A stretch of DNA of 32,000 nucleotides from Thermoproteus tenax Kra 1 (GCF_000253055.1 NC_016070.1:1110001-1142000), one strand, 5' to 3'. Positions 2,816-30,872 are shown, counted from the stretch's first letter. The notes: a model not told the origin generated them from the letters alone. Numbers and translations: made by a program.

Positions 2816-3078
2816 AGAGAGCTGTTCTATATCTTTTTAAAACTTTTATTACTATTTCTTGAGTAATAATTTTTCAAATATAATTATTTATTTAAGAATA
2901 AAATAATTATTTTAACAAAAAATTATAAAAATCTGATTACAGATTATTTTTAATAAGAATTATTAAATTTTATTTATTTTTAAGCTAATTTTATGTGTTA
3001 ATCTTAAAAAATAACTAGATTTTAATAATCATTGATAACAGTTAGTAAGAGAATCTCGTTCTATTTGAGCCGTCGGCC

Positions 3079-3888: not shown

Positions 3889-3902
3889 GTCTCAAACGAC
3901 CG

Positions 3903-3913
3903 GTTAATAAAAA
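3903..3913. promoter_or_regulatory. Shared A/T box (TTAATAAAAAA) in the 25-bp divergent spacer between cas6 and the beta-helix gene
   Basis: This is the only A/T-rich element between the divergent starts at 3888 and 3914. It lies about 15-25 nt upstream of the cas6 GTG. It is too close to ATG 3914, which argues that the beta-helix gene may start at ATG 3956 instead. Confidence 0.3.
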
Positions 3914-4609
3914 ATGGCGATACAACGTTTTTTAGATAGAATTAATTTTTGTTTTATGGTCAAATGGCTCATCATAGGCCTCACGGCGTTGTTCGCGATA
4001 CCTGGCCTGTTGTTGCTCTGGCTCATACTCGCCCAGGGAGGGTCGGGAGGCCTCTACTATATATTTAGCGCGCCTTACGTCGTGCGGAGCCCCGGCTACT
4101 ACAACGTGATGGCCGATCTGTGGGTCAACGGCACTGCGATAGTGGTTGAGGCAAGCAACGTGGTCATCAACGGCTGGGGGCACAAGATCAGAGGGACCGG
4201 CTACGGGATATACATAGCGCCCGGCGTCTCCAACGTGACTGTGGCCGACTTAGCCCTCGAGGGCTTCAGATACGGAGTGCGCGGAGAGGGCGTCAATTAC
4301 GTCGCGCTCTACCGCGTGAATGCCTCGGGCGGCGGCGTCGGCATCTCTCTGTCGGGCAATTACATCTCCCTAGTCTCAGTCAGCGCCGACCACAACTCGG
4401 GCGACGGAATAGACTGCGCCGGCAACTACATATATGTCGCCTCCTCGAACGCCGACTACAACGGAGGCTACGGCGCGTTCATCTCGGGCAACTATATCGT
4501 AGTGAAACGCTTCAACGCCACAGGCGATCTCAGACAGGGCCTGCGGATCGAGGGCTCCCACGTAGTAGTCCAGGGAATAAACGGGAGCGCCCTCTCGATA
4601 GGCTGGTGA
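3914..4609 (+). CDS. Secreted or membrane-anchored right-handed parallel beta-helix repeat protein
   Basis: It has an N-terminal signal-anchor (MVKWLIIGLTALFAIPGLLLLWLILA from the alternative start at 3956). Short ~22-aa repeats follow with the G-x-G-I / N-x-V pattern (GYGIYIAPGVSNVTV, GGVGISLSGNYISLVSV, GDGIDCAGNYIYVASS, GYGAFISGNYIVV), typical of PbH1/NosD-like beta-helices. Several N-x-S/T sequons are present. Confidence 0.65.
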   Translation: MAIQRFLDRINFCFMVKWLIIGLTALFAIPGLLLLWLILAQGGSGGLYYIFSAPYVVRSPGYYNVMADLWVNGTAIVVEASNVVINGWGHKIRGTGYGIYIAPGVSNVTVADLALEGFRYGVRGEGVNYVALYRVNASGGGVGISLSGNYISLVSVSADHNSGDGIDCAGNYIYVASSNADYNGGYGAFISGNYIVVKRFNATGDLRQGLRIEGSHVVVQGINGSALSIGW

Positions 4610-4630
4610 GGGGGACGCGCAACCGTTATA

Positions 4631-5137
4631 TTGGGGAGGCGCCGGGCGTATATGTATAAGCTCTGGGCGGCATTGATCCTGTCCGCCTGGGCCGCGTGGG
4701 GCTTCGCCATAGCCAATGTGACCTCGCCGGCCATTTCCGCCGCCGCTTACAACGGGAGCGTCTACCTCTACTACGTCGGAATGGCCAACGCCACGGCGCC
4801 GGGCATTGAGGGGGTCATCGTCGGCCCTCCGCAGCGTCCAGCGCCCCTCCCTCCCTCGCCGGCCTTCACTGCAGGCCCCTATCTGCGCCTTTTGGACAAC
4901 GGCTCGCTGGCCCTCCTCTGGACGTCCATCGAGCTGGGCCCCGTCCCAGCCGCCGTGCTCAAGATGTCGGTGTTGGGCAGAGGCGGCTGGGGTCCCCCGG
5001 CGCTCCTGACCGCTAACGGCACAGTCTTCAACTACGCCTCGGACGGAAGATATATCTACGCGCTCTGGAGCCCCCTCTTCTCGCCCGTGCCCATAAACGC
5101 CACAGTGCTCATGTTCTCCGCAGACGGAGCTCTCCTG
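4631..5137 (+). pseudogene. 5' fragment of a surface-protein gene (signal peptide plus repeated Y-L-Y/W blades) interrupted by IS sequences
   Basis: It has the signal peptide MYKLWAALILSAWAAWGFA and recurring motifs GSVYLYYVG, GSLALLWTS and GRYIYALWS. The reading frame runs on into tnpB-related sequence from about 5138. The tail of the track ORF (to 5290) is read-through, not genuine protein. Confidence 0.55.
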
Positions 5138-5270
5138 CGGCTTTGCGGCGGACAGAGGCGATGTGCCCGCGGCGTGGGCCGAGAGGCGCTACTGGGAACT
5201 CCTCCAGAGGGCAAAACAATAGTTTTTCCCTGCTCCCTTTACTTTTCACGTGCATCTAGCTTTTCTTCCC
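5138..5270 (+). mobile_element. Diverged relic of the 3' end of a second tnpB (OrfB) copy
   Basis: 5141-5222 aligns with 6428-6510, with roughly three of four bases identical by eye and an 8-nt gap. In its own frame it reads GDVPAAWAERRYWELLQRAKQ*, versus RDNVPVIWAEKRYWEILQKAKQ in the intact gene. Weaker similarity continues to about 5270 (TTTTCC, TTTAC/TTTAAC, TTTTCTT blocks). Confidence 0.6.
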
Positions 5271-5286
5271 CGCGCCATATACGCGT

Positions 5287-6552
5287 ATGAGCCAAGTCTA
5301 TAGGGCGTTGAAGATCAGAATTCCATGGTGTCTCGTCGAGGAGCGGCCGGACGTCCTCGACCTCACTGTGCGTATGCATCTGGCCGCGGAGGAGTACGCC
5401 AGAAGACTGTTGAAGGAGCTGACGGGGCAAGAGGAGCCGAAGCTCACGGCAGAGGAGCTGGACCGCCTGCTCACTCCCGAGAGGCGGGAGCTGGCGCGCC
5501 GGATAATAGAAGAGACATTCCCCAAGTACGGCCTCAAGAAGTACTTCATAGACAAAGCAAAATTCTTCTGGCGCGACGTGGCGTTCTACAGGGCGGTTCC
5601 ACTTGACATCCAACTTAGGATTGAAAACGAGAGAGACGTGAGTAGGGCAGTCTTCGTCGACCTAAAGAAGGGCGTTCTCAGAGTGCGTAAGCTCGGCATA
5701 CCCTCTTTCGCCGTTGAGTTGAAGAAGAGCAACGTCACTTGGATAAGGGAGAGACTAGAAGAGGGCGCTAAATTGAAGTTAGCGTTCCTCGGCGTTGAGA
5801 AGAGAGGTGGTGAGAAGGAGCCGACATTCGGCGGCCTATACGTCGCCCTTGTGTTCGCTAGGGAGGTGGCGCAGATAGCGCCTAGGGCGCTCGTCGTTGT
5901 CGACGTAAACCGGTTGGACCACTACATAAAGGTCGGCCTCGTGACCGACGGCCGAGCCGTGGAGCTGCGGAAGTTCCCCAAGAGGGAGCGTATACGGAAG
6001 CTTGAGAGGATCCACGTCCACATCAGCAGACTTAGCAGAGCCCTCGCGCGTGTGAACGAGGACATAGACCCGCGCAGAGCCCTCGACATCCAGAGACAGC
6101 TGTGGAAGCTTGAGACGAAGCGCTACGGCATAATCCGCGAGATAGTGGTGGACGCCGCCCGCGAGATCATAAAGCTGGCAAGGGAGCATAAGGCCGCCAT
6201 AGTCGTCGACACGATGGAGGACGAGAGCTACCGAGAGCTGAAGGAGAGGAGCGGAAACGGCATGAGGAAGCACCTCCTAGACGGTCTCGGACAACTGAGG
6301 AGGAGGTTGAAGGAGTTATCCCAGTGGTATGGGTTGCCGTATCTAGAGGAGCGGTTGTACTCAACTGCCTGTCCCCGTTGTGGCGCTAAGATGACAAAAG
6401 AGGAAGGCCGCTTCGTGCGTTGCCCCACTTGCGGCTTCAGAGCGCACCGCGACAACGTGCCGGTGATATGGGCAGAAAAACGCTACTGGGAAATCCTCCA
6501 GAAGGCAAAACAACCCGCTTTTCCGGCGACCGCCACATTTTTAACTTCGTAA
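5287..6552 (+). CDS. tnpB: TnpB / IS605 OrfB-family RuvC-like RNA-guided endonuclease (transposon accessory protein)
   Basis: 421 aa. RuvC-I-like VVVDVNRLDH, an acidic RuvC-II-like IVVDTMEDES, the zinc ribbon CPRCG-x15-CPTCG, and RuvC-III-like AHRDNVPVIW are all in the order expected for TnpB/OrfB. Confidence 0.85.
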   Translation: MSQVYRALKIRIPWCLVEERPDVLDLTVRMHLAAEEYARRLLKELTGQEEPKLTAEELDRLLTPERRELARRIIEETFPKYGLKKYFIDKAKFFWRDVAFYRAVPLDIQLRIENERDVSRAVFVDLKKGVLRVRKLGIPSFAVELKKSNVTWIRERLEEGAKLKLAFLGVEKRGGEKEPTFGGLYVALVFAREVAQIAPRALVVVDVNRLDHYIKVGLVTDGRAVELRKFPKRERIRKLERIHVHISRLSRALARVNEDIDPRRALDIQRQLWKLETKRYGIIREIVVDAAREIIKLAREHKAAIVVDTMEDESYRELKERSGNGMRKHLLDGLGQLRRRLKELSQWYGLPYLEERLYSTACPRCGAKMTKEEGRFVRCPTCGFRAHRDNVPVIWAEKRYWEILQKAKQPAFPATATFLTS

Positions 6553-6721
6553 GTTTTCTTATTTCATGAACGACGCATGGCCCTTGGGGCGGTTGACGGG
6601 GGCGTGCAGAAGGCGAAAACCGGCCGTTAGACGCCACGTCCCCCGTATGACCCGCCCCCTCGCCCCGGTGTACCCGGGGCGGGCCCTTGAGTCCCCCGGG
6701 GAGGGGCCAAGAGAAAGATAG
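6430..6721 (+). ncRNA. Candidate TnpB guide-RNA (omega/reRNA) scaffold overlapping the tnpB 3' end and the transposon right end
   Basis: In characterised TnpB systems the guide RNA comes from the tnpB 3' end plus the right end. Here an imperfect long hairpin pairs 6587-6606 (GGGGCGGTTGACGGGGGCGTG) with 6635-6658 (CACGTCCCCCGTATGACCCGCCCC). A perfect 8-bp hairpin follows at 6661-6681 (CGCCCCGG-TGTAC-CCGGGGCG), then GGCCC...GGGCC at 6682-6707. Extent and ends are not determinable from sequence. Confidence 0.35.
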
Positions 6722-7249
6722 GGGGACGTGTACGAGCTACTGGACCTCTGGACAGGCTCCGTGGAGCCCCTCGGGAGGTTCGCCTTGGCGGGCGCGGCAG
6801 GTCCCTACCTCTTCGCCTACTCCAACTCCACTCTAACGGTGTGGAACAAAACCGCCGAGCTCCGCCTGCGCGTCCCAGCCCTCGCCGCGGCCTTCGTCGT
6901 CCTAAACGGCGTTCCCCTCGTGGTCGCCGTCAACGGGACGCAGAGCGGCTACGCCTTTATAGTCTACTCCCTCGGCGGAGCTCAGATAATGGAGTGCGCC
7001 TCGGCTGAGCGCCCCCTCTCGTTCGCGGCAGCTCTGCTGGGGGACAGACTCTACCTCTTCTGGGTCGCTGCAAACGGGACTTTGTTGGGCTGTTCGTCGC
7101 GCCTCGCCTTCAGCGCTGCGCCTCCTCCGTCAACGCGGCCGGCCTCCCCCGCGCTGTGGATAATCTCAGCGCTGGCAGTTGTGGCGCTCGGAGCCGCCAT
7201 CGCGGCTCTGAAGTCTAGGCAAAGAGACAGCCGGGGCCTAGCCCGCTAG
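6722..7249 (+). pseudogene. 3' fragment of the interrupted surface-protein gene (blade repeats plus C-terminal TM anchor)
   Basis: It is open from just after the in-frame TAG at 6719. It carries the same motif style as the 5' fragment (GPYLFAYSN, GYAFIVYSL, DRLYLFWVA). It ends in the TM anchor ALWIISALAVVALGAAIAAL followed by the basic tail KSRQRDSR. The track ORF starts at GTG 6728. Confidence 0.55.
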
Positions 7250-8251
7250 GTCCGGCCAATAGGTCTCGTACAGCCTCATCCAATACCCGCTGACCAGCCT
7301 GTTCTTGCCCACCACGTCCACTATGGGAACATAGGCTATATCCCCGTTGCTGTAGGCGACCATCACTCCGTACCTGCCGTTCTCCACCGCCTCGTAGGCC
7401 GCCGTGGCGTACCTTACGGCCAAAATTCTGTCGAACGCCGTCGGCGGCACGCCTCTGATTGTGTGCCCAAGCACCACGGCCCTCGCCTCGATCCCGGTGC
7501 TCCTCTCTATATACTCCGCCAGCTCGTTTCCGACGCCCCCCAGCCTCGAGTGACCGTATTCATCCTTGGGCCCTCCGTACTCCTTGATCCCCTCGGAGAC
7601 CACTACAAGGGCCCAGCGCCTCTCGTTGTAGGCCTCCTTGACTCTCTTGGCCACCGAGTCCCAGCTCGCCGGCCTCTCAGGTATCAACACGGCGTCGGCC
7701 ATCGTCGACAGCCCCGTGAACAGCGCTATCCAGCCGGCCTCTCTGCCCATAACTTCGACGACGCCTATCCTTTCGTGGGAAATCAACGTGGTCTTGAAGG
7801 ACTCAGTCGCCTCTATCGCGGCGTTCACCGCCGAGTCGAAGCCTATGGTGTAGTCGGTGCCGTATACGTCGTTGTCTATCGTCTTCGGTATACCCACTGC
7901 GTCGAGTATGCCCCTCCTCTGGGCCTCTCCGGCGGCGCCCAACGTGTCGTCGCCCCCTATGGCCACTACGACGTCGAGCCCAAGCTCCTTCACGTTGCTC
8001 TCAAGCAGCCTCGCCCTCTCCTCGTCTTTGAACGGGTTGGTCCTGGACGTCCTTATGTACGTCCCGCCGGAGAAGGCGAAGTCCAACAAGTCGCGCGACG
8101 AGACCCTCTTGACCTCCTTATTCAACAGCCCCCTCCACCCGTGATATATCGCGTACACCTCGTGCTTCCTCTCGGCGAGTTTCACGAACGTGTAGACTGC
8201 TATGTTGAGGCCCGGGGCGTCGCCGCCCCCCGTCAGAACTCCTATCTTCAT
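7238..8251 (-). CDS. pfp: Pyrophosphate-dependent 6-phosphofructokinase (PPi-PFK)
   Basis: 337 aa. It has the PFK family N-terminus MKIGVLTGGGDAPGLN, plus IGGDDT and PKTIDND motifs. Its start overlaps the fba stop by ATGA (8248-8251). Length and context match the PPi-PFK I recall from Thermoproteus tenax. Confidence 0.9.
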   Translation of the reverse strand: MKIGVLTGGGDAPGLNIAVYTFVKLAERKHEVYAIYHGWRGLLNKEVKRVSSRDLLDFAFSGGTYIRTSRTNPFKDEERARLLESNVKELGLDVVVAIGGDDTLGAAGEAQRRGILDAVGIPKTIDNDVYGTDYTIGFDSAVNAAIEATESFKTTLISHERIGVVEVMGREAGWIALFTGLSTMADAVLIPERPASWDSVAKRVKEAYNERRWALVVVSEGIKEYGGPKDEYGHSRLGGVGNELAEYIERSTGIEARAVVLGHTIRGVPPTAFDRILAVRYATAAYEAVENGRYGVMVAYSNGDIAYVPIVDVVGKNRLVSGYWMRLYETYWPDLAG

Positions 8252-12832: not shown

Positions 12833-13660
12833 TTAGAAGCTTCTCCTCACTACGTACTGTTTTGCTTTGTCGAGTTGGGCGACGGGCGGAGGGGCCCGTT
12901 TGTGGGCGTTCTGTCTCACCCTCCTGAGGATCGTCTCCACCTTCGTCTTAGACACGCCGGTCTCCCTGGGGATATCCTCCTTGGGTATACCCAGCTCGTA
13001 AGCGTAGAGCACTAAGTCCACCTCTCCGTACTTTAGGCCCAGCTCCCCCTCGGCCGTGTGGCCTGCCCACAGCCTGGGCGCTGAGGGCTTCAGCGCTATA
13101 GACTCGGGGAGGCCCAAGAACTTCGCCATCTCTCTCACTTGCGTCTTGTAGAGATCGCCTATGGGCAATATGTCCACTCCGCCGTCTCCGTATTTGGTGA
13201 AATAGCCGAGCATGAGCTCGCTCTTGTCCCCCGTCCCGACGACGAGGAGGTTGTTCTTATTGGCGTAGTAGTACAACACGGCCATCCTTATCCTCGCCAT
13301 TAGATTGCCCCGGGCGACTGCGTCGTTCTCGTCATATATGGGGAGGTAGGAGAAGGCCGACAGAAGCTGGTCTATGGATATGACGTAGTGCCTCACGCCC
13401 AACCTCTTGGCGAGGGCGACTGCGTCCTCGACGTCTTGTCTGGGGGTGAAGCCGCTCGGGAGGACCAGGGCGGTGACCTTCCTAGGGCCGAGGGCCTCGG
13501 CGGTCAGAGCGAGAGTCGTACACGAGTCTACGCCGCCGCTGACGCCGACGACAGCCCCCTTGACTCTAGCCTCGGAGATGTACCGAGCTATAAAGTTCGT
13601 GATCTCATCCTTCGCTCTGCTGTAGTTTATGGCGCTGATTACGTCGGCCAGAGTTATCAT
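12833..13660 (-). CDS. nadE: NH3-dependent NAD+ synthetase
   Basis: 275 aa with the PP-loop GVSGGVDSCT. It has no glutaminase domain, so it is the ammonia-dependent type. Its start overlaps the glnK stop (ATGA at 13657-13660). Confidence 0.85.
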   Translation of the reverse strand: MITLADVISAINYSRAKDEITNFIARYISEARVKGAVVGVSGGVDSCTTLALTAEALGPRKVTALVLPSGFTPRQDVEDAVALAKRLGVRHYVISIDQLLSAFSYLPIYDENDAVARGNLMARIRMAVLYYYANKNNLLVVGTGDKSELMLGYFTKYGDGGVDILPIGDLYKTQVREMAKFLGLPESIALKPSAPRLWAGHTAEGELGLKYGEVDLVLYAYELGIPKEDIPRETGVSKTKVETILRRVRQNAHKRAPPPVAQLDKAKQYVVRRSF

Positions 13661-13983
13661 GCAAGCCTCTCGCCATTTCTAATTCTCCACGCCTCGAGCA
13701 CCGGTATAACGAAGATTCTGCCGTCCCCCAAGTGGCCCGTCCGGGCCGCCTCCATTATGACCTTGACCACCTTCTCGGCCTTGTCGTCCTCAACGGCGAC
13801 CTCGACCACCGCTCTGGGCAGAAGCGCCTCATACTTCCTCCCGCGGATAGTTATAGCGCCGCTTTCGCCTCCCATGCCGCCGACATCTCTATATACCGTC
13901 GCGCCCGTGAACCCCTCCTTGACCAACGCGTCAATGACGTCGGCGACTTTGTCCTCCCTTATCACCGCGCGGACTAGCCTCAT
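13657..13983 (-). CDS. glnK: PII nitrogen regulatory protein
   Basis: 108 aa with PII fold motifs: a Tyr at position 51 in RGRKYEALLP and the B-loop TGHLGDGRIFV. It is translationally coupled to amt (ATGA at 13980-13983). Confidence 0.85.
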   Translation of the reverse strand: MRLVRAVIREDKVADVIDALVKEGFTGATVYRDVGGMGGESGAITIRGRKYEALLPRAVVEVAVEDDKAEKVVKVIMEAARTGHLGDGRIFVIPVLEAWRIRNGERLA

Positions 13984-15215
13984 GGCCTGATAACGCCGTG
14001 GTCTACGGCGTCTAGTCCCACCAGCTCCTCCTCCTCAGTGACGCGGAAGCCCAGCTTGGCCAACGCCCAGAAGAAGGCTGCGGTGGTGGCCACTACGAAC
14101 GAGAGCGCGATGGCCATGCCAAGCCACTGGACCAATACCCAGCCCACAGGTCCTCCGTAGATCAAGCCGGCCATCCCGGCGACTTTGGGCGACGACAGTA
14201 TCGGAACCAAGGCGCTCCCCAAGACTCCGTTGAAGCCGTGGGCGGGGAGGCCGCCGACGGGGTCGTCTATGGGTATAAACCTCTCGACAAGCTTAGTGCC
14301 GTAGAAGGTGACGGCCCCCGCCAACGCCCCCACCAGAAAGGCTGAGGGCACTTCCACGAACCCAGCGAGGGGAGTTATCATGACGAGACCGCCGATCACT
14401 CCGCCTATGGCCTGGACGGGGCCCCAGACGCCCTCGCGCCTCGCCAGAAGTAGCGAGACGAGGCCGCCGAGAGAGCCTGCTATCGCCGTGTTTGCTATTG
14501 CGTAGCCGGTCTGCGGCGAAACGACCAGCGTGGAGCCTCCGTTGAAGCCGAACCATCCGAAGAACAATAGAGCGGTGCCCACGATGGCGTAGGGGAGCTC
14601 GGCCTTTCTGTACTCTATGGCCTCCTTGTAGGCGAAAGTGTGGTCCTCTCCGTTTAGGGCGGCGCGCTTGAGGAGGGAGTGCCCCAATATGGCCGTGGCC
14701 ACGGCCCCGGCGAGGCCGGCGTACGCGTGCACCACAGTCCCTCCGGCGAAGTCGCGCACACCATACCCCGGAACGCCGAGGTAGTTGCCCAAGTTGTACA
14801 AGAAGCCGTTCCCCCATATCCAGGAGGCCACTAGCGGCCACTGAACTGCCGAGAAGAACACAGCATATGCCAGCCAGCCCCCAAATTTAAGCCTTTCCGG
14901 CGCCCCAGCGAAGATCAACGCCAATGTCACTGCTCCGAAGGCCCCCAGGAAGAAGGCGTACACCAGATCGGGTATGCCGGCGTCGGACCCCACCGGCAGA
15001 TAGCCGTCCTGGAGAACCCCCGAGAAGTAGAACGGGAAAACTAGGAACCAGATAGGGAAAAAGACCATGAAGGCCAACATGCCCTTCATCATGGCGTTGA
15101 TGACGTTGGACCGGCGCACTAGGCCCGCCTCAAGAAAGCCTATTGCTGGTATCATTAGAAAGACCAATATGCCCCCCACGGCGGTCCAGATAGTGGCGCC
15201 CACGTCGATCTGCAT
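13980..15215 (-). CDS. amt: Ammonium transporter (Amt family)
   Basis: It is polytopic, with Amt motifs (FLEAGLVR, DFAGGTVVHAYAG, GFNGGS, HGFNGVLG). Start ATG 15215 (MQIDVGATIW) is preferred over the track start 15263 because a TATA-like box sits about 28 nt upstream of 15215. Confidence 0.85.
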   Translation of the reverse strand: MQIDVGATIWTAVGGILVFLMIPAIGFLEAGLVRRSNVINAMMKGMLAFMVFFPIWFLVFPFYFSGVLQDGYLPVGSDAGIPDLVYAFFLGAFGAVTLALIFAGAPERLKFGGWLAYAVFFSAVQWPLVASWIWGNGFLYNLGNYLGVPGYGVRDFAGGTVVHAYAGLAGAVATAILGHSLLKRAALNGEDHTFAYKEAIEYRKAELPYAIVGTALLFFGWFGFNGGSTLVVSPQTGYAIANTAIAGSLGGLVSLLLARREGVWGPVQAIGGVIGGLVMITPLAGFVEVPSAFLVGALAGAVTFYGTKLVERFIPIDDPVGGLPAHGFNGVLGSALVPILSSPKVAGMAGLIYGGPVGWVLVQWLGMAIALSFVVATTAAFFWALAKLGFRVTEEEELVGLDAVDHGVIRP

Positions 15216-15235
15216 AGGGCGCGTTCTCCGAGCTA

Positions 15236-15249
15236 ATAAATATATTTCC
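15236..15249 (-). promoter_or_regulatory. TATA-like box for the amt-glnK-nadE unit
   Basis: The minus strand reads AAATATATTTATTA, centred about 28 nt upstream of ATG 15215. Confidence 0.4.
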
Positions 15250-15433
15250 GGAAGAAAGTTCATATAACCTGTGATCTATTGGTATATTTTACATTTCTAT
15301 TCGTTGCCTATAAAAATGCTCCACATTATAACGAATCCTAACCCGAAAAAAGTTCCTTCTTAACTTAGAAAAGTTTGTCAAATAATATATAATCTATAAA
15401 GAGTTTTCAAAAAAGTATATAGGCTGATCTCAA

Positions 15434-17020
15434 TCACTTAATATATGTGCCAGCCCGGGGGGCCAGCTGGAGCCCGACGCCTCCGTGGCGCGTCCACCTA
15501 TCGCCGACCTTTATGAGCAAAGGCAGTGAGACCGAGACGCCGGTGATTAGGGCCATGTCCTCGTCGAGGCCTCTGAGCTGGTATGGATCGTCCAGATGCT
15601 CCGCCGCTGCGGCGACATATCTGAGGTCCACAGGGTTTATTATCCTCTTGAATATCTGAGTCATACACTGGGAGAGAGCATCGGGGTCCAGCTTGGTGGG
15701 CCTCTGCGAGATGAGGCAGAGGCCTACGCCGAACTTCCTCCCCTCTCTGGCGATCTTGACGGCGTAGGGCTTGCTGACGGGGGACTCCCTCGCCGGCACA
15801 AAGTTGTGCGCCTCCTCCAATACGACCAACGTCGGCACATTGAGCCTCCTCAGAGCCGCCTTGTAGATGCCGTCCAGAGCTACGGCTAGGAAGATCCTCT
15901 GGTCGAACAGATCCAGGCCGGAGAGGTCGAACACCCTCACTCCGGGCGAGGAGACCGCTTTGACGGGATCGAAGAGCCTCACGGGCTCTCCCGCGTAGAC
16001 TTCGCCGTATCTCTCAAGAAAGACGGGGCTCCCCTTGAACAAAGCCCTGAGCCTCCCGGCCAGCCCTCCCAGAGCCATCTCCCCCGCGTATCCCGCCGGA
16101 GCGGCCGCCTTCCCCTCCTGGATCACCTCATCTATCAACTCCTCAACGTCGGTCAAAGGCTGTCTATCGCCGTAGGAGGTCGCCCTCTGCCAACCCTCCT
16201 CGAGGATCCTCCTCTGGGCGTCGGTGAGGCCGTAGGAGGACTCCAGAAGCCTCTCCAGAACCCTTAGGGGGAGGGAGCGCGGGTTTATGCCGACTCTGGT
16301 GTAGCGGCGCACAGCTCCGAATTTAGCCTCGAAGGCTCTGTCCTGCGCTGATACGTCCACTTTGCCGACGACGTAGAGCTCAATCTGTTCCGACACGGCC
16401 TTGCCCTCCTCCGACTGCGGAATCTGCATAGCCGAGTACTCCCCGTGGGGGTCGAAGACGAGCACAGACACGTTGGCCGCAGCGGCGAGGCGCTCTATGA
16501 TGACTCCGGCGAGCCAAGACTTACCAGCGCCCGTGCTAGCCAATATGGCGCAGTGCTGCGAGACCAACTTGTTGGCGTCCACCAACGCCGGCACGTCGTA
16601 GCCCCACACTCTGCCTAGCTCTATATAGGGGCCCTCCCCCTTAGGCGTCAACAGCTTGGCCACGAGCTCCGGCGGCGCCTTGTAGACGTAGTCCAACGGC
16701 TTGAGCGGCCTCAGAGGCCTCCCCAGCCTCTCGCCTCTCACCACCCCCAAGATCACCGCCTTGGCCTCTGTGTAGTACAACGCAGCGTCGATGTTAAGTT
16801 TATCTCTAATGTATTTGACCGACTCCAAGTCGTCGAGCTGCGCCACCAGTCTGGCGTCCATGACGACGCTCCTCCTTCTGACGGCCACAGTCTTGGCCAA
16901 CACCTGCTCCCCCGAGCCGGCCAGCACAAGGGAGCCGCCCTCGGCCTCGACGTTCAAGAAAGTTCTGAATATGAAGTGGGTGGTCGAAGGCGCCTTGACG
17001 ACGACGCCTATGGGCTCCAC
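15434..17020 (-). CDS. HerA/FtsK-like (DUF87, COG0433-type) P-loop ATPase with an N-terminal HAS-barrel-like domain
   Basis: 528 aa. It has an N-terminal beta-rich segment (MEPIGVVVKAPSTTHFIFR...), Walker A ILASTGAGKSW and Walker B LVVLEEAHNFVP. It also has KIAREGRKFGVGLCLISQRPTKLD, typical of HerA-clade ATPases. Confidence 0.75.
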   Translation of the reverse strand: MEPIGVVVKAPSTTHFIFRTFLNVEAEGGSLVLAGSGEQVLAKTVAVRRRSVVMDARLVAQLDDLESVKYIRDKLNIDAALYYTEAKAVILGVVRGERLGRPLRPLKPLDYVYKAPPELVAKLLTPKGEGPYIELGRVWGYDVPALVDANKLVSQHCAILASTGAGKSWLAGVIIERLAAAANVSVLVFDPHGEYSAMQIPQSEEGKAVSEQIELYVVGKVDVSAQDRAFEAKFGAVRRYTRVGINPRSLPLRVLERLLESSYGLTDAQRRILEEGWQRATSYGDRQPLTDVEELIDEVIQEGKAAAPAGYAGEMALGGLAGRLRALFKGSPVFLERYGEVYAGEPVRLFDPVKAVSSPGVRVFDLSGLDLFDQRIFLAVALDGIYKAALRRLNVPTLVVLEEAHNFVPARESPVSKPYAVKIAREGRKFGVGLCLISQRPTKLDPDALSQCMTQIFKRIINPVDLRYVAAAAEHLDDPYQLRGLDEDMALITGVSVSLPLLIKVGDRWTRHGGVGLQLAPRAGTYIK

Positions 17021-17055
17021 ATAATGGCGCCCTCAAGCAAATATCAACCCATTAG

Positions 17056-17880
17056 TTATTCATACTCAAGCTTCGGCAGATCCTCCTCCTGTCTCACCTC
17101 CTTCGTCCTCCCCTCCACGTAGTACGCCCGCCAGCCCGCCCTCAACGCGCCCCTCAGGGCGAAGCGCGTCCTAAGCTCTGCTATAACCATGACGGGCGAC
17201 TTGGCCAAGCGCTCCAGGAGGTTCAGCGCCAGGTCGTAGTAGAGCGAGGATTCAAAGTCCTCTATCAGGAGGAGCACGTCCTTTCCCAAGGCCTCCTTCG
17301 CAAGAGCGGCCGACTCCGCCGACGCCGCCAGCTCTAGAGCCCTCCTGAAGCCCGCAGAGAGCGATCTAAACGGCATCCATCTCCCCTCCCACTTGACGGC
17401 GAGTCCGTCCCTAACGGCGGCAAGGCCGCCGAAGGCTGGCCCCAAGATCGATGGAGCGGCTTGCTCGATGCGCTCTAGGAGCTCGCCGCTGAGGGCCTCC
17501 TCGAGCCTCTTGGTAGCGTGCGCCGCCCCATCGTCGACAGTTAGATATTCGCCGGCCCAGAGCACGGCGGGCGCCTGGGGGATCCAAGGAGGGCTGAATC
17601 TGCCGGGCGCCACCTCGGTGAGGGCCGGCTCGCCGGGGGGCCTCGGCCGCCTCCGCAGTCTCCCCGGTATAACGAGCCTCCAGCCTCTGTCGGACTCCAC
17701 CAAGGCGTCGTCGGTTCCCCAGCCCACGTCATCCCGGGCGACCTCACCCCCTTGGAGGAGGAGCGCGACGGCCCTCATGATGGAGCTCTTGCCTCCTCCG
17801 TTCGGCCCGAAGAGGATCGTCTTGCCCAGCTCCAGAGTGGCCTCCTCCACCGCTCTAAAGTTGAGTATGCGGACCCGCAT
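17056..17880 (-). CDS. Small SMC/RecF/Rad50-head-like ABC ATPase without a coiled coil
   Basis: 274 aa. The N-terminus MRVRILNFRAVEEATLELGKTILFGPNGGGKSSIMRAVALLL has the SMC/RecF-type start and Walker A. It has the signature-like LSAGFRRALELA and an atypical Walker B, VLLLIEDFESSLYYD. Only about 150 aa separate Walker A from the signature motif, so there is no coiled-coil insertion. Confidence 0.65.
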   Translation of the reverse strand: MRVRILNFRAVEEATLELGKTILFGPNGGGKSSIMRAVALLLQGGEVARDDVGWGTDDALVESDRGWRLVIPGRLRRRPRPPGEPALTEVAPGRFSPPWIPQAPAVLWAGEYLTVDDGAAHATKRLEEALSGELLERIEQAAPSILGPAFGGLAAVRDGLAVKWEGRWMPFRSLSAGFRRALELAASAESAALAKEALGKDVLLLIEDFESSLYYDLALNLLERLAKSPVMVIAELRTRFALRGALRAGWRAYYVEGRTKEVRQEEDLPKLEYE

Positions 17881-17903
17881 TTAGACTAAGGAAAAAATAA
17901 GTT

Positions 17904-19343
17904 TTATTGTTTGCCTTGGTTGTTGGCCTGGCTGGCGAAGGCGAACTCGTCGTAGGCCACCTCGCCGTGCAGAGCTTTGTCGCCCACCTTGAGGTCGGCC
18001 TCGGGCGCCCGTAGCGGTGTTATTTTGCTAATCAGCTTCAAAATCAGAAAGGTCACAGCTGCGTCATAGGCAACCACTACGGCGGCTCCGAGCAGCTGGA
18101 GCAAGACTTGATAGGGGTTGCCGTAGAGCGCGCCGGTCAGCCCCGGAAAGACGTACTGTGTTATGCTCGGGTCTGCGAACACGCCAGTGAGGATGCCGCC
18201 CACTATTCCGGGCACGGCGTGATCCGAGAAGACGCCCAAGGCGTCGTCAATATGCTTAAGATATCTGAGTTGGAAGAAGTTGAGGGAGTACCACGCGGCG
18301 GCCGAGGAGGCGGCTCCTATCACAATCGCGCCTATCATGTTCACGTAGCCGGCGGCGGGCGTTATGCCGACGAGCCCGGCCACGGCGCCGGCGGCCGCGC
18401 CCGTGAGGGTAGGTTTGCCAAAATAGGCGGTGTCCAACAACATCCAGACTACTGTCGCCACGGCCGTGGCCACGTTCGTGGCCAACACGGCTATCGCTGC
18501 GTCCACAGTGGATCCGTACGGGTCTCCCCCATTGAAGCCGTTCCAACCCAACCAGACTAAGCCGAGGCCCGCGGCCACTTGAGTGAGGTTGTGAGGCGCC
18601 AGCCGCCTCTCCTCGATCAGCCTCGGGCCGACCATGGCCGCCGCTATGAAGGCCGCTATGCCTGCGTCCACGTGTATCACATAGCCGCCGGAGAAGTCCA
18701 CCACGCCGAGCTGCATGAGCCATCCTCCGCCCCACAGCCAGAAGGCCACGGGCGAGTAGACCAAGAGGCTCCAGAGGGGGACGAAGAGCATCCAGGCTTT
18801 GAAGTTCATCCTCTCGATGAGCGCGCCGACTATCAAGGCCGGGGTAATGGCGGCGAACACGAATTGGAAGAAGATGAGGGTCGCCATCACTATGTTGGGG
18901 TACGCCTGTGCGGCGGGCACCGCTGCCTGGCCCGCGGTGGCGTTGGCAGTGACTGCGGGCATCGGAGTGCCCAAGATGTAGTAGTTGCCTATCTTCAGAA
19001 GCGGCGGGCCGAAGCCGAACTCGTAGCCGGCGAGGATCCAGACTATGAGCACGACTGCGAAGGCGTAGAGCACCATCATCATAGTGTTTATGGCGTACTT
19101 ACGCTTGGTCATGCCGCCGTATAGGAGCATGAGGCCCGGAACGCTCTGTAGACCCACCAGGGTGGCGGCAGTCAACATCCAAGCGTTGCTACCTGTGTCG
19201 AGCCAAGTCGGAACGGCGGCGCTGGGATAGCCGGTGGTCCAGGGAAGCTGGGTCGCGTTGGACGTCGTCTGAGCGAGCGCTCCGCCAGCTGTCAATAACG
19301 CGAGCGCCATCAGCGCCTTCCAGAGACCTCTTCTTTTGTCCAT
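17904..19343 (-). CDS. amt: Ammonium transporter (Amt family), second paralog with a cleavable signal peptide
   Basis: From the internal ATG 19343 it reads [24 protein letters not shown] (signal peptide). Amt motifs follow ([44 protein letters not shown]). The track start 19430 adds a non-native-looking 29 aa. No PII gene is adjacent. Confidence 0.8.
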
Positions 19344-19845
19344 GGGCTGTGGAAGGGGGCCCCCTATGTAGATTCTATGTACATACGGCGGAAGACTATA
19401 TAGAAAAAATAGTAGCTGTGCAGAGGACATGTCCTTAAGCGTAGACTATATTCACCACTTTATCAAATTGTTGATTGAGTAAAAATTCAAAACCTAAAAT
19501 ATATATAGCATTATTCTTTAAAATTAAAAATAAATTGATAATAATGTTAAATAAAATATTAAATTCTGTAGATAGGAGGAACGGTAGACAATTTTTCTCT
19601 GTTTTTACATTTTTCCAGTCCTATTATATCTTCTTCCGGAGGGCGTCGATGGGCTCTAGCTCCTCAGTCGCTTGACAAAGATACCAAGCGCCCGACGTAG
19701 TAGTCCCGATCGGAGTCTTTTTTGCACTGCTCCATCGCCTGGGTTTGAACATATCGTCCTCCGCCTCTGCGACGCTATGGGGCCGGCTCTGATCGCCGCA
19801 GCTGTCTGATCGCCCCTCTCTGCCCCCAAAAAAGGCCGCGTGAGC

Positions 19846-20955: not shown

Positions 20956-23900
20956 GTGCGCCCAGCGCTCCTCCCCCTCCTTCTGTTGGCCGCCTCCGCT
21001 CTGGCCCTCCAGCTCTCGCCGGGTTCGTGCTACACCTACTTCAACTTGACCATCTCCAGCGCCCCCGCCTACCTAATCGCGTATAACTACAACTCCACCT
21101 TTCTCTCAGCCTATCTGATGACGCCGCAGCAGGTCTCCGCCTTCGTAAACGGGCAGAGCGTGAGCCCCCTCGCGTCCTACCAACTGCCCCCATACTCGCC
21201 GTCGGCCTTCGAGGTAAATCAGACGGGCAATTATAACTTAGTCGTCTATCCAGTCCCCTGTAGCCAGAGGCTCCTCCTATATCTATCTTCCCCGCGAGGG
21301 GGCCTCCCCGTGGGTATAGCCTCCTATCCCGCGGAGCTTTTGTCGACTCAAGAGGTCGCAGGGTTCTTCAACATCACATCTATATCCGCCTACAACCCCA
21401 ACTTCAACCCGAGCGACGGCGCCTCTCTACAGTTGAACGCAGTGGTTCAAGTGCGTCTGGCCGATGGATCAACGCAGTACTACTGGGTCCAAGACATAGC
21501 CTGGTTCGAGACCTCCAGAGGCCAGGTGAACTTTGGAGACAACGTATGGAACTCCACCTCCCCCAGCTCCTCGGTGTCCCCCTCATCTATCAGCGGACAG
21601 GGCTCAGTCAACAACGGCGTTTACCTGTACGGGACCTACCTCCAGCCCTACGCTCTGCCGCTGGCGGGGTTCCTCGCGGTCAGAGCCTATGCGGCTAACG
21701 GCGCTGTCCACGTGGACTTCGGCTATCTGATCGCCCAGAACGGGGCACAGCTGTCCCAGAGCGGCGCCACGTGGTTCGACCATGTGACGATAACGCCCTC
21801 GCAACCGGCTGTCTCAGTCCAGATAGTCGTCACTACGACGTTCCCGACCAGCGGTGGGAACGCCCCCGACGTCGAGCTAGTGTTCGGCGGTATTGGAAAT
21901 GGGGAGATCACTACTTTCAACTCGCTTCGGGCGAGCCTCGGCCTATACTACCTAAACGGCTCTTCTTGGGTCCCTCTGCCCTACTTGTACACGTATGGCG
22001 CAGATACAGCGGAGGGAGCCACCGACCTGGCCACCTCTTGGGGCAACGGACTGGCCTCGGTCGCCGTAGGCCCCCTCAGCCCTGGCCGGCTGAGCCCCAC
22101 GTGCGTCCAAACGCCGCAGTCTCTGAGCTCCCCCGTCCAGTGGTCGCTCTATTGCTACGCCTCGGTCAAATACCCAGTCTCTATAACAAGCCCCATACCC
22201 ATCTACGTCAACGGCACCGAGACTACGTCGTACTCGGCCTATCTCCCCGCCGGCGCGGCCCTAGTGATCCAGGACGGCTACGCGCGCTACCCCAACGGCA
22301 CTATGTTCGTCCCCTCTGTCGGCAACGAGACGATAGTGGTCTCGGGCCCCATATCCTTGGCCGTGTCGTGGACGCCCTACTACCTAGTGAGAGTTAGCTC
22401 TCCGATCCCAGTTGAAGTGGACGGGCAGAGTGCGACTTACTTCTCTACATATATCAAGGCGGGGTCCTCCCTCGTGGTGCAGGCCCGGGAGGTCTATCTG
22501 CCCAACGGGACAATGCTGAGGCCGGCGCCGTCCTACCTCTCGTTGACTGTGGAGGGCCCCCTCAATATAACCGTCTCTTGGAGCAAATACTACGAACTCT
22601 ACGTGAAGAGCGCGTTTCCGGTCTACGTCAATGGATCCTCTGCGGCCGGCCCCGTCTACCTCCCGGCTGGGTCGCTCGCCGTTGTGACCGCGTATAACGT
22701 CACTTTGCCGAACGGAACAATGTTCGTCCCCTCGCCGCCCAGCGCAGTGGTGGATATGTCGGGCCCCGTCGTTCTTGAGGTGGACTGGGCGCCTCTGTAC
22801 CTCGTCTCTATATCCTCGCCTCTGCCCGTGCTGATCAACGGGACAGCTGCAGAGAGCTTCTCGAAGTACTTGAGACCGGGCTCCAGGCTGGCTCTGCAGA
22901 CCTCCAACGTAGTTCTGCCTAACGGAACAATGTTTGTGCCCAACGTGGGGAACTCCACAGTAACTGTGTCCGCCCCTCTGGCTATCTCTGTGGAGTGGAC
23001 GCCCTACTACCTAGTGAGGGTGGAGAGCCCGCTGCCCGTCCTTATCAACGGCACGGCCGCCGCCTCGGCCTACGTCAGACGGGGCTCCCTTGTGTACATA
23101 CGGGCCGTGAACATCACTCTCCCCAACGGCACTATGTTCGTCCCCTCGGTCGGCAACGAGACATTGGCGGTCACAGCGCCCTTGACGATCTCGGTGGAGT
23201 GGACTCCGTACTATCTGGTGGCGGTGAGGAGCCCGCTACCGGTGCTGGTCAACGGGACGGCGAGTGTGGACTACGAGCGGTACCTCAGAGCCGGCTCGAG
23301 GCTAGTCGTGTCGGCCGGCCCGGCCAGAGTGGGCAACGGCACCATGTTTGTGCCGGCCCAGCCCAACGCCACGCTCTTGGTGGCCGGCCCAGTGAACTAT
23401 ACCGTCGGCTGGATACCGTACTACCTCGTTGAAGTGGAGAGCTCGGAGCCTGTGTACGTCAACGGGACTGCGACCGTTAACTACACGGAATACGTGAGGG
23501 CGGGCTCGGCGCTCTACGTCGCGGCCCGCGCGATCTATCTAAGGAATGGTTCAGCGCTCTTCCCCTCGCCGGGCAACCTCACTCTCATAGTGAGGAGACC
23601 TGTGCAGCTCGCCGTCTCTTGGAGGGTCTACCACCTGGTCTCAGTGAGCTCGCCGTTGCCGGTCCTCGTCAACGGCTCGCGCGCCCAGTCCCTCTACGTT
23701 CCCGCGGGCTCTGTCGTTGTCGTGTCGGCCCATAGAGTAGTTCTGCCGAACGGCACTATGTTCGTCCCCTCGGTCGGCAACGAGACGATAGTGGTGGAGG
23801 GCGCTCTGAACATCGCCGTCAGCTGGACGCCGTACTACCTAGTGGAGGTCTACAGCCCTCTGCCGGTCTTTGTGAACGGGACCGCCGCCACGAGGTACGC

Positions 23901-24351
23901 GCAGTACGTGAGGGCGGGCTCGGCGCTGGCCTTGGGCGCGCCCCAGCGCGTTGTGTTCGACAACGGCACTATGTTTGTGCCGGCCGTGGGCAACGAGACG
24001 GTGGTGGTCTCCGCGCCGGCGAGGCTGGCCGTGTCTTGGATCCCCTACTACCTCGTCCAGATCTCGGGCCAGAGGCCGGTGCTCGTGAACGGAGTCTCCA
24101 CAGCGAGCTACGAGCAGTATCTGCGGCGCGGATCCAGTCTGTCCATAAGCGCAGAGCCAGTGCCGGAGTTCGGCGGGCTTATCGTGTTGGAGCCGAACGT
24201 CACACGGATGAATATAACTGTGGAGAGGCCTATAAAGGTCGGCGTAGTATATGCTCCGGACTACTCACGCCTTGAGGCCGTAGCCGCTGCCGCCTCGGCC
24301 GCCTCAGCCGCGGCGTCGCTGATACTACGCAGAAGACGCGCCGTCGCCTAG
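20956..24351 (+). CDS. Thermopsin-family (peptidase A5) domain fused to ten tandem ~70-aa repeats and a C-terminal TM anchor; surface glycoprotein or protease
   Basis: It has the signal peptide MRPALLPLLLLAASALA. The N-terminal ~390 aa match thermopsin blocks as I recall them (PVGIASYP, FNITSISAYN, SLQLNAVVQV, YYWVQDIAWFE, FGDNVWN, VELVFGGIGNGEITTFNSL, LGLYYLNG, LYTYGADTAEGA). Ten repeats follow, then AAAASAASAAASLILRRRRAVA. Confidence 0.8.
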   Translation: MRPALLPLLLLAASALALQLSPGSCYTYFNLTISSAPAYLIAYNYNSTFLSAYLMTPQQVSAFVNGQSVSPLASYQLPPYSPSAFEVNQTGNYNLVVYPVPCSQRLLLYLSSPRGGLPVGIASYPAELLSTQEVAGFFNITSISAYNPNFNPSDGASLQLNAVVQVRLADGSTQYYWVQDIAWFETSRGQVNFGDNVWNSTSPSSSVSPSSISGQGSVNNGVYLYGTYLQPYALPLAGFLAVRAYAANGAVHVDFGYLIAQNGAQLSQSGATWFDHVTITPSQPAVSVQIVVTTTFPTSGGNAPDVELVFGGIGNGEITTFNSLRASLGLYYLNGSSWVPLPYLYTYGADTAEGATDLATSWGNGLASVAVGPLSPGRLSPTCVQTPQSLSSPVQWSLYCYASVKYPVSITSPIPIYVNGTETTSYSAYLPAGAALVIQDGYARYPNGTMFVPSVGNETIVVSGPISLAVSWTPYYLVRVSSPIPVEVDGQSATYFSTYIKAGSSLVVQAREVYLPNGTMLRPAPSYLSLTVEGPLNITVSWSKYYELYVKSAFPVYVNGSSAAGPVYLPAGSLAVVTAYNVTLPNGTMFVPSPPSAVVDMSGPVVLEVDWAPLYLVSISSPLPVLINGTAAESFSKYLRPGSRLALQTSNVVLPNGTMFVPNVGNSTVTVSAPLAISVEWTPYYLVRVESPLPVLINGTAAASAYVRRGSLVYIRAVNITLPNGTMFVPSVGNETLAVTAPLTISVEWTPYYLVAVRSPLPVLVNGTASVDYERYLRAGSRLVVSAGPARVGNGTMFVPAQPNATLLVAGPVNYTVGWIPYYLVEVESSEPVYVNGTATVNYTEYVRAGSALYVAARAIYLRNGSALFPSPGNLTLIVRRPVQLAVSWRVYHLVSVSSPLPVLVNGSRAQSLYVPAGSVVVVSAHRVVLPNGTMFVPSVGNETIVVEGALNIAVSWTPYYLVEVYSPLPVFVNGTAATRYAQYVRAGSALALGAPQRVVFDNGTMFVPAVGNETVVVSAPARLAVSWIPYYLVQISGQRPVLVNGVSTASYEQYLRRGSSLSISAEPVPEFGGLIVLEPNVTRMNITVERPIKVGVVYAPDYSRLEAVAAAASAASAAASLILRRRRAVA
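22165..24256 (+). repeat. Ten in-frame tandem repeats (204-213 bp, 68-71 aa) inside the thermopsin-like gene
   Basis: Unit consensus is YYLVxVxSPLPVxVNGTxxxxYxxYxRAGSxLxxxxxxxxLPNGTMFVPSVGNETxxVxxPxxxxVxWxP. Unit starts are near 22165, 22378, 22588, 22795, 23005, 23209, 23419, 23629, 23833 and 24046. Near-identical DNA stretches AACGGCACTATGTTCGTCCCCTC(T/G)GTCGGCAACGAGAC occur at about 22294, 23124 and 23748. Confidence 0.9.
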
Positions 24352-29942: not shown

Positions 29943-30872
29943 GTGGAGTTTGAGAATTTGATAGTCCCCAACATGGTCTTGGAGCTCCTCGGCCCCAAGT
30001 CCGTCGTTGAGGCTCCCCCGGGCTTCAAGGCCTTGGCGATGGAGCTAGCCAGGAGGACTGGGTCCAAGGTGTCGGGGAGGGCCGTGTGGGGGAGCTGCGA
30101 TGTGGGGTTGGACGAGGCCAGAGCTCTGGGCGCCGAGAGGATCGTCCACCTCGGACACGGCGTTCCCCCCAACATCGCCTATCTGTTGAAGAAGAACACA
30201 GGCGGCAGAGTGGAGAAGATAGACACAGACACATACGTCCTCAGGGCGCAGGGGATCGAGGCCTACTTCGTCCCTGTGTACTATATGCCGCCTGAGGATC
30301 TCCCCTCGCCGCCGTTGGGCAAACTCTACTTCCCCGTCCCCTACCGCTTGATAGCTGAGGAGCTTGCTGCGCGGTACCGTCTGGAGCTCGCGGCGGAGCC
30401 CATCACGGGCTGTTGGGTGGGAGAGGCGCCTGCGGGCTCCGCAGTGGTGGTGTCCCCAGGCTATTTCTACGCGTTGGCTGTGAAGCTCTTCTACCCCGAG
30501 GCGCAAGTGTGGGCGCTCGACCCGTTCAACAGACGCGTTGTCCCAATAGAGTCTGAGTACAGAAGGCTCATGGGACTGAAGGCGAGGGCGTATCTTGCCA
30601 GGAGAGATAAGGTGATAGTGGTGGTCTCCAGGAAGCCCGGCCAGATGCAGAGGGAGGCCGCGGAGAGAGCCGCCGAGAAGCTCGGCGGCATAGTAGTCGA
30701 GCTGGACGAGGCGTCGCCGGAGCTCCTAGACGACCTACAGGCCGATCTCATAGTGAATACCGCCTGCCCCAGGATAGGCTTCGACGATTTGGACAGAATC
30801 AAGACCCCCGTGATTAACTTGAAGGAGCTCGAGGAAGGGTTCAAGCCCCAGAACATCATAAGGCTGATCTAG
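29943..30872 (+). CDS. dph2: Diphthamide biosynthesis protein Dph2 (2-(3-amino-3-carboxypropyl)histidine synthase)
   Basis: 309 aa. WGSCDVGLDEARALGAERIVHLGHG matches the Dph2 motif (GxCD...HxGH). It has a three-subdomain length and the C-terminal NTACPRIGFDD. The start is either GTG 29943 or ATG 29973. Confidence 0.75.
   Translation: MEFENLIVPNMVLELLGPKSVVEAPPGFKALAMELARRTGSKVSGRAVWGSCDVGLDEARALGAERIVHLGHGVPPNIAYLLKKNTGGRVEKIDTDTYVLRAQGIEAYFVPVYYMPPEDLPSPPLGKLYFPVPYRLIAEELAARYRLELAAEPITGCWVGEAPAGSAVVVSPGYFYALAVKLFYPEAQVWALDPFNRRVVPIESEYRRLMGLKARAYLARRDKVIVVVSRKPGQMQREAAERAAEKLGGIVVELDEASPELLDDLQADLIVNTACPRIGFDDLDRIKTPVINLKELEEGFKPQNIIRLI

Follow-up and report, generated by a model that had tools for sequence, protein, structure and literature searches.

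Two ATPase genes of probably separate histories, a Cas_RecF homolog and a HerA paralog, lie side by side in the Thermoproteus tenax lineage

A stretch of 32,000 nucleotides (nt) from the genome of Thermoproteus tenax Kra 1 (NC_016070.1:1110001-1142000; hereinafter, the window) carries on its minus strand two adjacent ATPase genes, one for a small ATPase of 274 amino acids (aa) that resembles the heads of Rad50 and SMC proteins (17056..17880, ATG start) and one for a HerA paralog of 528 aa (15434..17020, GTG start). Both proteins exactly match database entries (CCC81922.1, labelled ‘Predicted ATPase’, and CCC81921.1, respectively), and the coordinates and lengths of the two open reading frames (ORFs) agree with a preliminary description of the locus, in which the pair was portrayed as a nuclease-less two-ATPase module that could serve DNA processing or defence. 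As a conserved module, the pair is not borne out by the comparative analysis: the two genes are not conserved neighbours, either in the 20 loci from beyond the T. tenax lineage that contain orthologs of the herA gene or in the six readable contexts of relatives of the small ATPase. We consider it probable that two ATPase genes with separate histories were brought together at this locus in the T. tenax lineage alone, without forming a conserved system.

The case against a conserved pair comes from both genes. All ORFs from 80 metagenomic loci that encode HerA relatives and from the loci of three genomes, with flanks of up to 6 kb on each side of herA where the contig allows, were searched with a hidden Markov model (HMM) of the Cas_RecF family, to which the small ATPase belongs (see below). 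Full-length matches beside herA were found only in the window and in near-identical strain contigs (L001 and L002), and 20 loci with herA orthologs from beyond the T. tenax lineage, which come from Thermoproteus, Pyrobaculum, Vulcanisaeta and their kin, showed no Cas_RecF-like ORF near herA; the contexts of herA in three of the loci compared (L003, L005, L006) differ from that in the window. The weak matches to the family HMM in distant loci correspond to large Rad50-like ORFs located downstream of canonical herA genes. Reciprocally, no HerA gene lies beside the small-ATPase relatives in any of the six contexts that could be read (seven family members with the one in the window).

The small ATPase contains all three motifs noticed in the preliminary description, namely GPNGGGKSS (residues 25-33), LSAGFRR (174-180) and LLLIEDFE (203-210). 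The Pfam matches to this protein are far beyond chance (AAA_21, E=1.8e-10; AAA_15, E=1e-9), and its profile matches are generic and involve mainly the first ~45 residues (AAA_21, AAA_15, AAA_23, RecF, Rad50, OLD, AriA, PtuA); with the generic RecF model TIGR00611, only residues 2-44 are aligned, and the score of 31.9 bits lies below the cutoff of 172. A word-indexed homolog search retrieved only a strain variant with 98% identity, and an exhaustive all-against-library HMMER search was needed for the detection of 88 relatives, mostly of 250-330 aa. The motifs common to these relatives are GPNGxGKS, L[SA]YGx[RK][RK], hhhhE-x-F-E-x-x-L-H-x-D, E-T-H and G-W-x-x-Y-Y-V, and the best library matches are genes located in type III-B cassettes of Thermoproteales, among them P0122 (9.5e-27) and P0125 (5.1e-17), both in Cmr loci. 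By its sequence, the small ATPase is a member of the Cas_RecF family, cluster 17 of Shah et al. (2019), and scores 231.5 bits with a family HMM that was built with this protein included; its overall identity to the cassette-embedded members is ~30%.

The Cas_RecF family is already catalogued: cluster 17 is listed as ‘Cas_RecF, SMC ATPase’, with 31 members of about 330 aa (Shah et al., 2019, Table 2, PMC6546367), and Cas_RecF has been described as always paired with RFas, a protein of about 160-180 aa (Vestergaard et al., 2014, PMC3973734). A search of the literature on Cas_RecF recovered only the computational descriptions in these two papers, and in public annotation the family members are labelled ‘AAA family ATPase’. 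The T. tenax protein shares with the catalogued ones the size range (270-330 aa), the single head without a coiled coil, the GPNGxGKS, L[SA]xGxRR and hhhhE-x-F-E motifs, and the C-terminal GW.xYYV (PMC6546367, PMC3973734); it differs from them in the lack of a type III cassette or RFas gene beside it, the replacement of two histidines, a short middle region and near-neutral evolution.

The unusual Walker B motif, in which the preliminary description saw the order of Glu and Asp inverted, is real, but it is no oddity of this protein because hhhhE-x-F-E is the norm of the family. The acidic residue of Walker B is Glu in 59 of the 64 aligned family members, and the position after it, canonically that of the catalytic Glu, is mostly occupied by G, N, A or S in the alignment of these 64 sequences (residues 203-216 and 235-237 of the T. 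tenax protein). This form of Walker B suggests that ATP hydrolysis may be slow or altered across Cas_RecF.

In the structural model predicted with AlphaFold2 (mean predicted local distance difference test score, pLDDT, 80.4; predicted template-modelling score, pTM, 0.79), residues 76-126 form a low-complexity segment that is predicted to be disordered, and the best matches in the PDB are Rad50 heads, PtuA, an SMC head and RecF, with query-normalised template-modelling (TM) scores of 0.5-0.6. The characterization of the protein as a mini Rad50/SMC head devoid of a coiled coil is thus a fair one. The similarity to PtuA of the Septu system, the Rad50 head and RecF consists in the ABC-type head fold and in the N-terminal strand and Walker A typical of AAA_15, AAA_21, AAA_23 and SMC_N; in contrast to these proteins, the small ATPase has no coiled-coil or dimerisation insertion, no partner nuclease (PtuB or Mre11) and no H-loop His, its Walker B carries Glu in place of Asp, and the sequence similarity does not extend beyond the first ~45 residues. 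No nuclease domain embedded in the small ATPase was detected by the Pfam scan or the structure search. The ability to bind ATP has most likely been retained, and the protein may form head-to-head dimers. Searches of phage and plasmid proteins returned only matches of the Walker A region to enterobacterial AAA ATPases, so that no viral or plasmid origin is indicated.

The genomic contexts of the relatives link the family to type III CRISPR systems. Four of the six relatives with readable contexts are located inside or beside type III cassettes, in the vicinity of RAMP, Cas10/Cmr2 or Csx1 genes: P0122 (loci L007 and L008), P0125 (Pyrobaculum calidifontis, L009), P0126 (L015 and L016) and P0128 (L017). 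In all four cases, at least one ORF of 140-210 aa comes next after the ATPase gene. In P. calidifontis, the genes from Pcal_0272 (cas10) to Pcal_0277 (csx1) are followed by a 191-aa ORF and the ATPase; Pcal_0278 is listed as ‘cas_RFas, cluster 17 associated’ (PMC6546367, Table 2), and by its position P0125 appears to be the gene adjoining Pcal_0278. The contexts of the remaining two relatives, P0124 (L100) and P0140 (L014), contain only unannotated ORFs and no HerA. The metagenome scaffold with P0140 (L014:1-11796) consists of about 12 kb of ORFs, ten of which were scanned without a Pfam match, and may represent an unknown mobile element, a virus or a defence island.

Three RFas-like ORFs downstream of Cas_RecF relatives (L015:1408-1929, L007:4461-5024 and L017:2446-2952) can be aligned on a P-D-x(15-20)-E-x-K pattern that resembles PD-(D/E)xK. 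Two of the three show weak independent Pfam matches, to RE_endonuc (E=0.098) and to Herpes_UL24 (E=0.0021), families that we take to consist of PD-(D/E)xK nucleases. If the motif is genuine, Cas_RecF and RFas would constitute an ATPase-nuclease pair in the manner of Septu, Gabija or OLD, and only the ATPase component of such a pair would be represented by the T. tenax orphan. No profile matches have been reported for the RFas proteins of clusters 83 and 108 (Shah et al., 2019, PMC6546367).

The T. tenax copy is not embedded in any such setting. No Cas10 or RAMP gene was found near it among the window ORFs scanned, and no RFas-like ORF adjoins it; the gaps to amt2 on the upstream side (23 nt) and to herA on the downstream side (35 nt) are too short to accommodate a small ORF. 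The surroundings consist of housekeeping genes, namely amt, glnK, nadE and a phosphoesterase gene, and no CRISPR-like repeat family is present anywhere in the window. The only cas gene in the window is a stand-alone cas6 (3079-3888), 13 kb from the small ATPase, in agreement with a published account in which T. tenax cas6 genes are remote from the cassettes (PMC4005679). The cas6 gene is on the minus strand and scores 74.8 bits with TIGR01877, above the cutoff; it adjoins two ORFs without a family match and a TnpB/Cas12f-like gene, in a neighbourhood that includes ORFs at 3914-5290 and 5287-6552 on the plus strand.

The second ATPase has all the HerA-like motifs intact, as noticed in the preliminary description: GAGKSW with the GAGKS of Walker A, LEEAH as Walker B, and REGRKFG. 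The DUF87/HerA central domain was identified far beyond chance, with E=1.8e-36, and the HAS-barrel with E=0.0012, below Pfam's cutoff; the architecture consists of the HAS-barrel, a RecA-like core with a helical insertion and a C-terminal region. The AlphaFold2 model (pLDDT 89.4) matches the HerA structures of Thermococcus kodakarensis (9X1L/9X1M) and Sulfolobus solfataricus (4D2I), the HerA components of HerA-NurA systems, over the full length, with TM scores of 0.70-0.80, and contains no extra or nuclease domain. According to the Pfam scan and the fold comparisons, neither ORF encodes a hidden nuclease domain, such as the NurA- or Mre11-type nuclease considered in the preliminary description. 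The HerA paralog most likely functions as a hexameric, ATP-driven translocase of double-stranded DNA.

This protein is nevertheless distinct from the HerA of HerA-NurA systems, scoring far below the NCBIfam equivalog cutoffs, with no NurA, Mre11 or Rad50 gene near herA in the window or in the orthologous loci. The respective scores are 159.4 bits for helicase_HerA (NF040819, cutoff 970), 143.3 bits for the HerA of Thermoproteales implicated in double-strand break (DSB) repair (NF040937, cutoff 800), and 102.7 and 89.9 bits for two anti-phage HerA models (NF042943, cutoff 800; NF042944, cutoff 850). The PADLOC model of the ‘Type III coevolved’ HerA (PDLC01055) gives 57 bits, compared with 144 for the best model, PDLC04105. 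The canonical DSB-repair, anti-phage and CRISPR-linked HerA identities were all ruled out by the combination of score and context. The HerA of the NurA-Csm6-HerA cluster (Bernick et al., 2012, PMC3396285; clusters 57/58 of Shah et al., 2019) comes from the same order of organisms and is tied to CRISPR biology, much as a HerA-family gene adjoins a CRISPR-family ATPase gene in the window, but its BLAST E value to S. solfataricus HerA is about 1e-5 (PMC3396285), compared with 1.8e-32 obtained for the window HerA with phmmer, and no NurA, Csm6 or CRISPR array is found beside the window herA. With SIR2-HerA/Nezha and DUF4297-HerA, the window protein shares a HerA-type fold, and it differs from them in the absence of an effector and in scores below the HerA_antiphage cutoffs. 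An SMC-like ATPase (mad3) and a HerA-like ATPase (mad8) also occur together in the MADS system; the small ATPase of the window matches mad3 in the Walker A region only.

Other Thermoproteus have orthologs of this HerA paralog with 81% identity, whereas the identity is about 59% for those of Pyrobaculum and about 47% for those of Vulcanisaeta, Caldivirga and Thermocladium, values that track the organismal tree. The next tier of homologs, at 30-35% identity, includes canonical HerA, for example the euryarchaeal Ferroglobus homolog (L099), which belongs to an mre11-rad50-nurA-herA operon. Four groups of HerA have been recognized in Pyrobaculum, three of them paired with NurA (Bernick et al., 2012, Table A2, PMC3396285), the fourth group, PAE2998, Pcal_1112, Tneu_1732 and Vdis_0944, having no NurA partner (Bernick et al., 2012, PMC3396285). 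The ortholog from Pyrobaculum neutrophilum (ACB40650; 59% identity) maps to 1.525 Mb, and NurA is absent from the 6 kb around it. The other three groups are excluded by score or position, and we infer that the window HerA belongs to the fourth, NurA-less group (Tneu_1732), an assignment made by elimination and map position and not through a direct sequence match. In line with this placement, no Pfam match to NurA was found within 6 kb of herA in L003, L005 and L006; a jackhmmer search of all fetched loci with one NurA query retrieved only the query itself, so that the absence of NurA from these three loci is an absence of Pfam labels. Given the fit to the NurA-less group, the ‘nuclease-less’ condition emphasized in the preliminary description would be an order-wide trait of the HerA paralog, not a peculiarity of the T. 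tenax locus.

Outside the T. tenax lineage, the gene neighbourhood of this HerA is partly conserved. In nine of the 20 ortholog loci, those of P. neutrophilum (L005) and of Thermoproteus-like organisms (L019-L026), herA is preceded by the genes for an xpd-type helicase and a type IA topoisomerase and by dph2, in that order; in L005 the arrangement, which is common to two genera, spans positions 669-7575. The conservation of the order across two genera suggests that it is the older arrangement, and the linkage to xpd and topoisomerase hints at a role of the NurA-less HerA paralog in DNA metabolism. In the window, dph2, a gene for diphthamide synthesis, is located at 29943..30872 on the plus strand, that is, 13 kb from herA and on the opposite strand, and its flanks are not syntenic with those of the relatives that possess the xpd-topoisomerase-dph2-herA array; accordingly, the T. 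tenax region appears to have been rearranged. A single inversion that would have separated dph2 and herA is unsupported because neither flank of the dph2-herA pair of the relatives is syntenic with the window.

In the spacer between the two ATPase genes (17021..17055, minus strand, 35 nt, the length previously claimed), the GTG of herA is preceded at a distance of about 18-25 nt by a TATA-like box, TTGATATTT. In an alignment with the window, L003, L019, L022 and L005, all of them loci that lack an ATPase gene upstream of herA, have a box with the pattern [CT]T[AG]ATA[TA] at the corresponding position. The TTGATATTT box is likely to be the promoter of herA and, because it is retained in orthologs without the upstream ATPase gene, herA would have brought its own promoter to the present locus.

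The two genes also differ in the mode of their evolution. Between the window and the L001 contig, which are 98.9% identical, herA shows 2 nonsynonymous and 17 synonymous differences (pN/pS, the ratio of nonsynonymous to synonymous polymorphism, 0.039), whereas the small ATPase gene shows 6 nonsynonymous and 3 synonymous ones (pN/pS 0.68); the two substitution patterns differ with p=0.005 in Fisher's test, the counts being small. Thus, herA is strongly constrained by purifying selection. In the small ATPase, the Walker B residues E207 and E210 are kept, but His214, a His in 62 of the 64 family members, is replaced by Tyr, and the H-loop His237, a His in 60 of the 64, is replaced by Arg; the middle region is shortened and of low complexity. 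The near-neutral divergence between strains is probably that of a decaying or functionally drifting remnant.

Under the scenario that we consider probable, herA is a vertically inherited paralog of the Thermoproteales that would act without an adjacent NurA, any partners being encoded elsewhere; in the T. tenax lineage, it would have left the xpd-topoisomerase-dph2-herA arrangement, retaining its own TATA-like element. The small ATPase would be a divergent, off-locus Cas_RecF paralog, deprived of both the RFas partner and the cas cassette, that is decaying or drifting. Several observations weigh against this scenario. A distance of only 35 nt separates the two genes, which share a strand and are both intact, so that co-transcription or a functional link is conceivable in T. 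tenax; we regard the probability of such a link between the small ATPase and HerA as low. Intact versions of both ORFs are present in at least three strain-level sequences (the window, L001 and Logan contigs). The six replacements in the small ATPase are conservative (I/V, D/E, K/R, M/T, R/H) and, because in addition the counts are small, apparently relaxed selection may signify fast evolution instead of decay. Both His replacements are also found in the fragment P0124, and the His-to-Arg change is found in P0140 as well; such shared changes may mark a divergent functional subfamily and not decay. The indirect route by which the HerA paralog was placed in the NurA-less group belongs here, too.

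Among the alternatives, the small ATPase could be a working CRISPR accessory that acts in trans with the type III (Csm/Cmr) systems of T. tenax, the proximity of herA being irrelevant, which we hold to be unlikely, although not negligibly so. The membership in Cas_RecF speaks for such a function, as does the existence in T. tenax of a type III region with Csx1 (TTX_1228) and cas_RFas (TTX_1229) (PMC3973734, PMC6546367), and the cas6 genes of this organism are scattered outside the cassettes (PMC4005679), with one of them in the window. Furthermore, the Cas-association score of cluster 17 is 24.7, compared with 66-89 for the RFas partners, which could mean that off-locus copies are more common in this cluster. 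This possibility has to be reconciled, however, with the invariable pairing of Cas_RecF with RFas (Vestergaard et al., 2014), for which no adjoining RFas-like ORF is available here, with the loss of two near-invariant His residues, with a pN/pS of about 0.7, and with an overall identity of only about 30% to the cassette-embedded members.

The proposal that the pair works as a module for DNA processing or defence that does without a nuclease, the small head sensing or clamping DNA and loading the HerA translocase or regulating it, appears quite improbable. It draws on the tight same-strand spacing of 35 nt, on the intactness of both ORFs in several T. tenax-like strains, and on the presence of both ATPase classes in known defence systems, the head ATPases being represented there by PtuA, AriA and GajA, and HerA by SIR2-HerA and DUF4297-HerA; moreover, Cas_RecF and HerA/NurA are both accessory families of type III CRISPR systems in Thermoproteales (PMC6546367). 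Nevertheless, none of the 20 loci with HerA orthologs from beyond the T. tenax lineage and none of the six contexts of Cas_RecF relatives shows the adjacency, herA has its own conserved promoter-like box, the two genes evolve under very different selection, the HerA paralog is not of the CRISPR- or phage-defence type, and the locus combines the lack of an effector with housekeeping surroundings (amt, glnK, nadE, phosphoesterase). A related version, in which a Cas_RecF that escaped its cassette and lost RFas came to regulate or load the NurA-less HerA, giving rise to a new two-ATPase unit in the T. tenax lineage, with the His changes shared with P0124 marking a functional non-CRISPR subfamily, strikes us as very improbable.

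The possibility that the small ATPase is a transport-type ABC ATPase serving amt2 is hardly credible: the gene starts 23 nt past the amt2 stop on the same strand and shows weak, Walker-A-only matches to ABC transporter models, but the ABC_tran match is restricted to residues 21-49 and, with 17.2 bits, falls short of the cutoff of 25, the relatives reside in cas cassettes, an oligo-T run and a TATA-like box separate amt2 from the ATPase gene, and the SMC/Rad50/PtuA-like fold together with the family assignment effectively refutes the transporter reading. To our knowledge, Amt channels need no ATPase.

Each of the two genes bears on a separate question. Both belong to catalogued families, neither of which has been studied experimentally. 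The T. tenax Cas_RecF copy, being outside a cas locus, is relevant to the question whether such accessory ATPases act outside CRISPR, and the order-wide, constrained NurA-less HerA, whose gene accompanies those for xpd and a type IA topoisomerase in several genomes, may merit study in its own right.

The gene order on the minus strand of the window is amt2, the 274-aa ORF, the 528-aa ORF, amt1, glnK and an NAD-synthase-like gene. Pfam labels confirm that the flanking genes are Amt-family genes and glnK. No nuclease or effector ORF is located between the amt genes. The amt2 gene (17904..19430, minus strand; PF00909) encodes a protein 100% identical to a T. tenax ammonium transporter, and the amt1-glnK unit (13657..15263, minus strand) comprises amt1 (13980-15263) and glnK (13657-13983). 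The amt2 stop codon together with the following spacer, read directly from the sequence, occupies 17881..17907 on the minus strand, the gap between the stop (17904) and the ATG of the small ATPase gene at 17880 being 23 nt, as stated originally. In the region of the amt2 stop, a AATAAAAC element is centred about 25 nt upstream of this ATG and is followed by a T6 run. In the light of what is generally known of archaeal promoters and terminators, AATAAAAC and T6 could represent the promoter of a leaderless transcript, the oligo-T terminator of amt2, or both.

An insertion of the ATPase genes between duplicated amt genes, as entertained in the preliminary description, is unsupported: amt1 and amt2 are only 29% identical and hence are old paralogs, not products of a recent duplication, and in nine relatives herA lies directly downstream of dph2. 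Outside T. tenax, the closest relatives of amt2 are those of Vulcanisaeta (79-82%), followed by Caldivirga and Sulfolobales, and none of the top matches is labelled as other Thermoproteus or Pyrobaculum, a pattern that suggests patchy retention or horizontal transfer. The spacer between herA and amt1 is AT-rich, at least 170 nt long and contains many promoter-like matches; the earlier figure of ~210 nt is approximate, the distance being 170 nt when counted to the first ATG, ~218 nt with Met17 as the start, and ~266 nt if amt1 starts as in the sister strain L001, where the protein has 395 aa compared with 427 aa here. All four nonsynonymous differences from the sister strain in the amt1 ORF fall within the first 25 codons (15188-15263), and the real start of amt1 probably is further downstream, with a correspondingly longer herA spacer.

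Elsewhere in the window, a 1131-aa ORF (20956-24351, plus strand) contains internal repeats with units of 136-153 nt and start-to-start distances of about 200-630 nt. The predicted protein, with a recurring LPNGTMFVPS peptide, a hydrophobic start and many N-x-S/T sites, probably is a surface glycoprotein.

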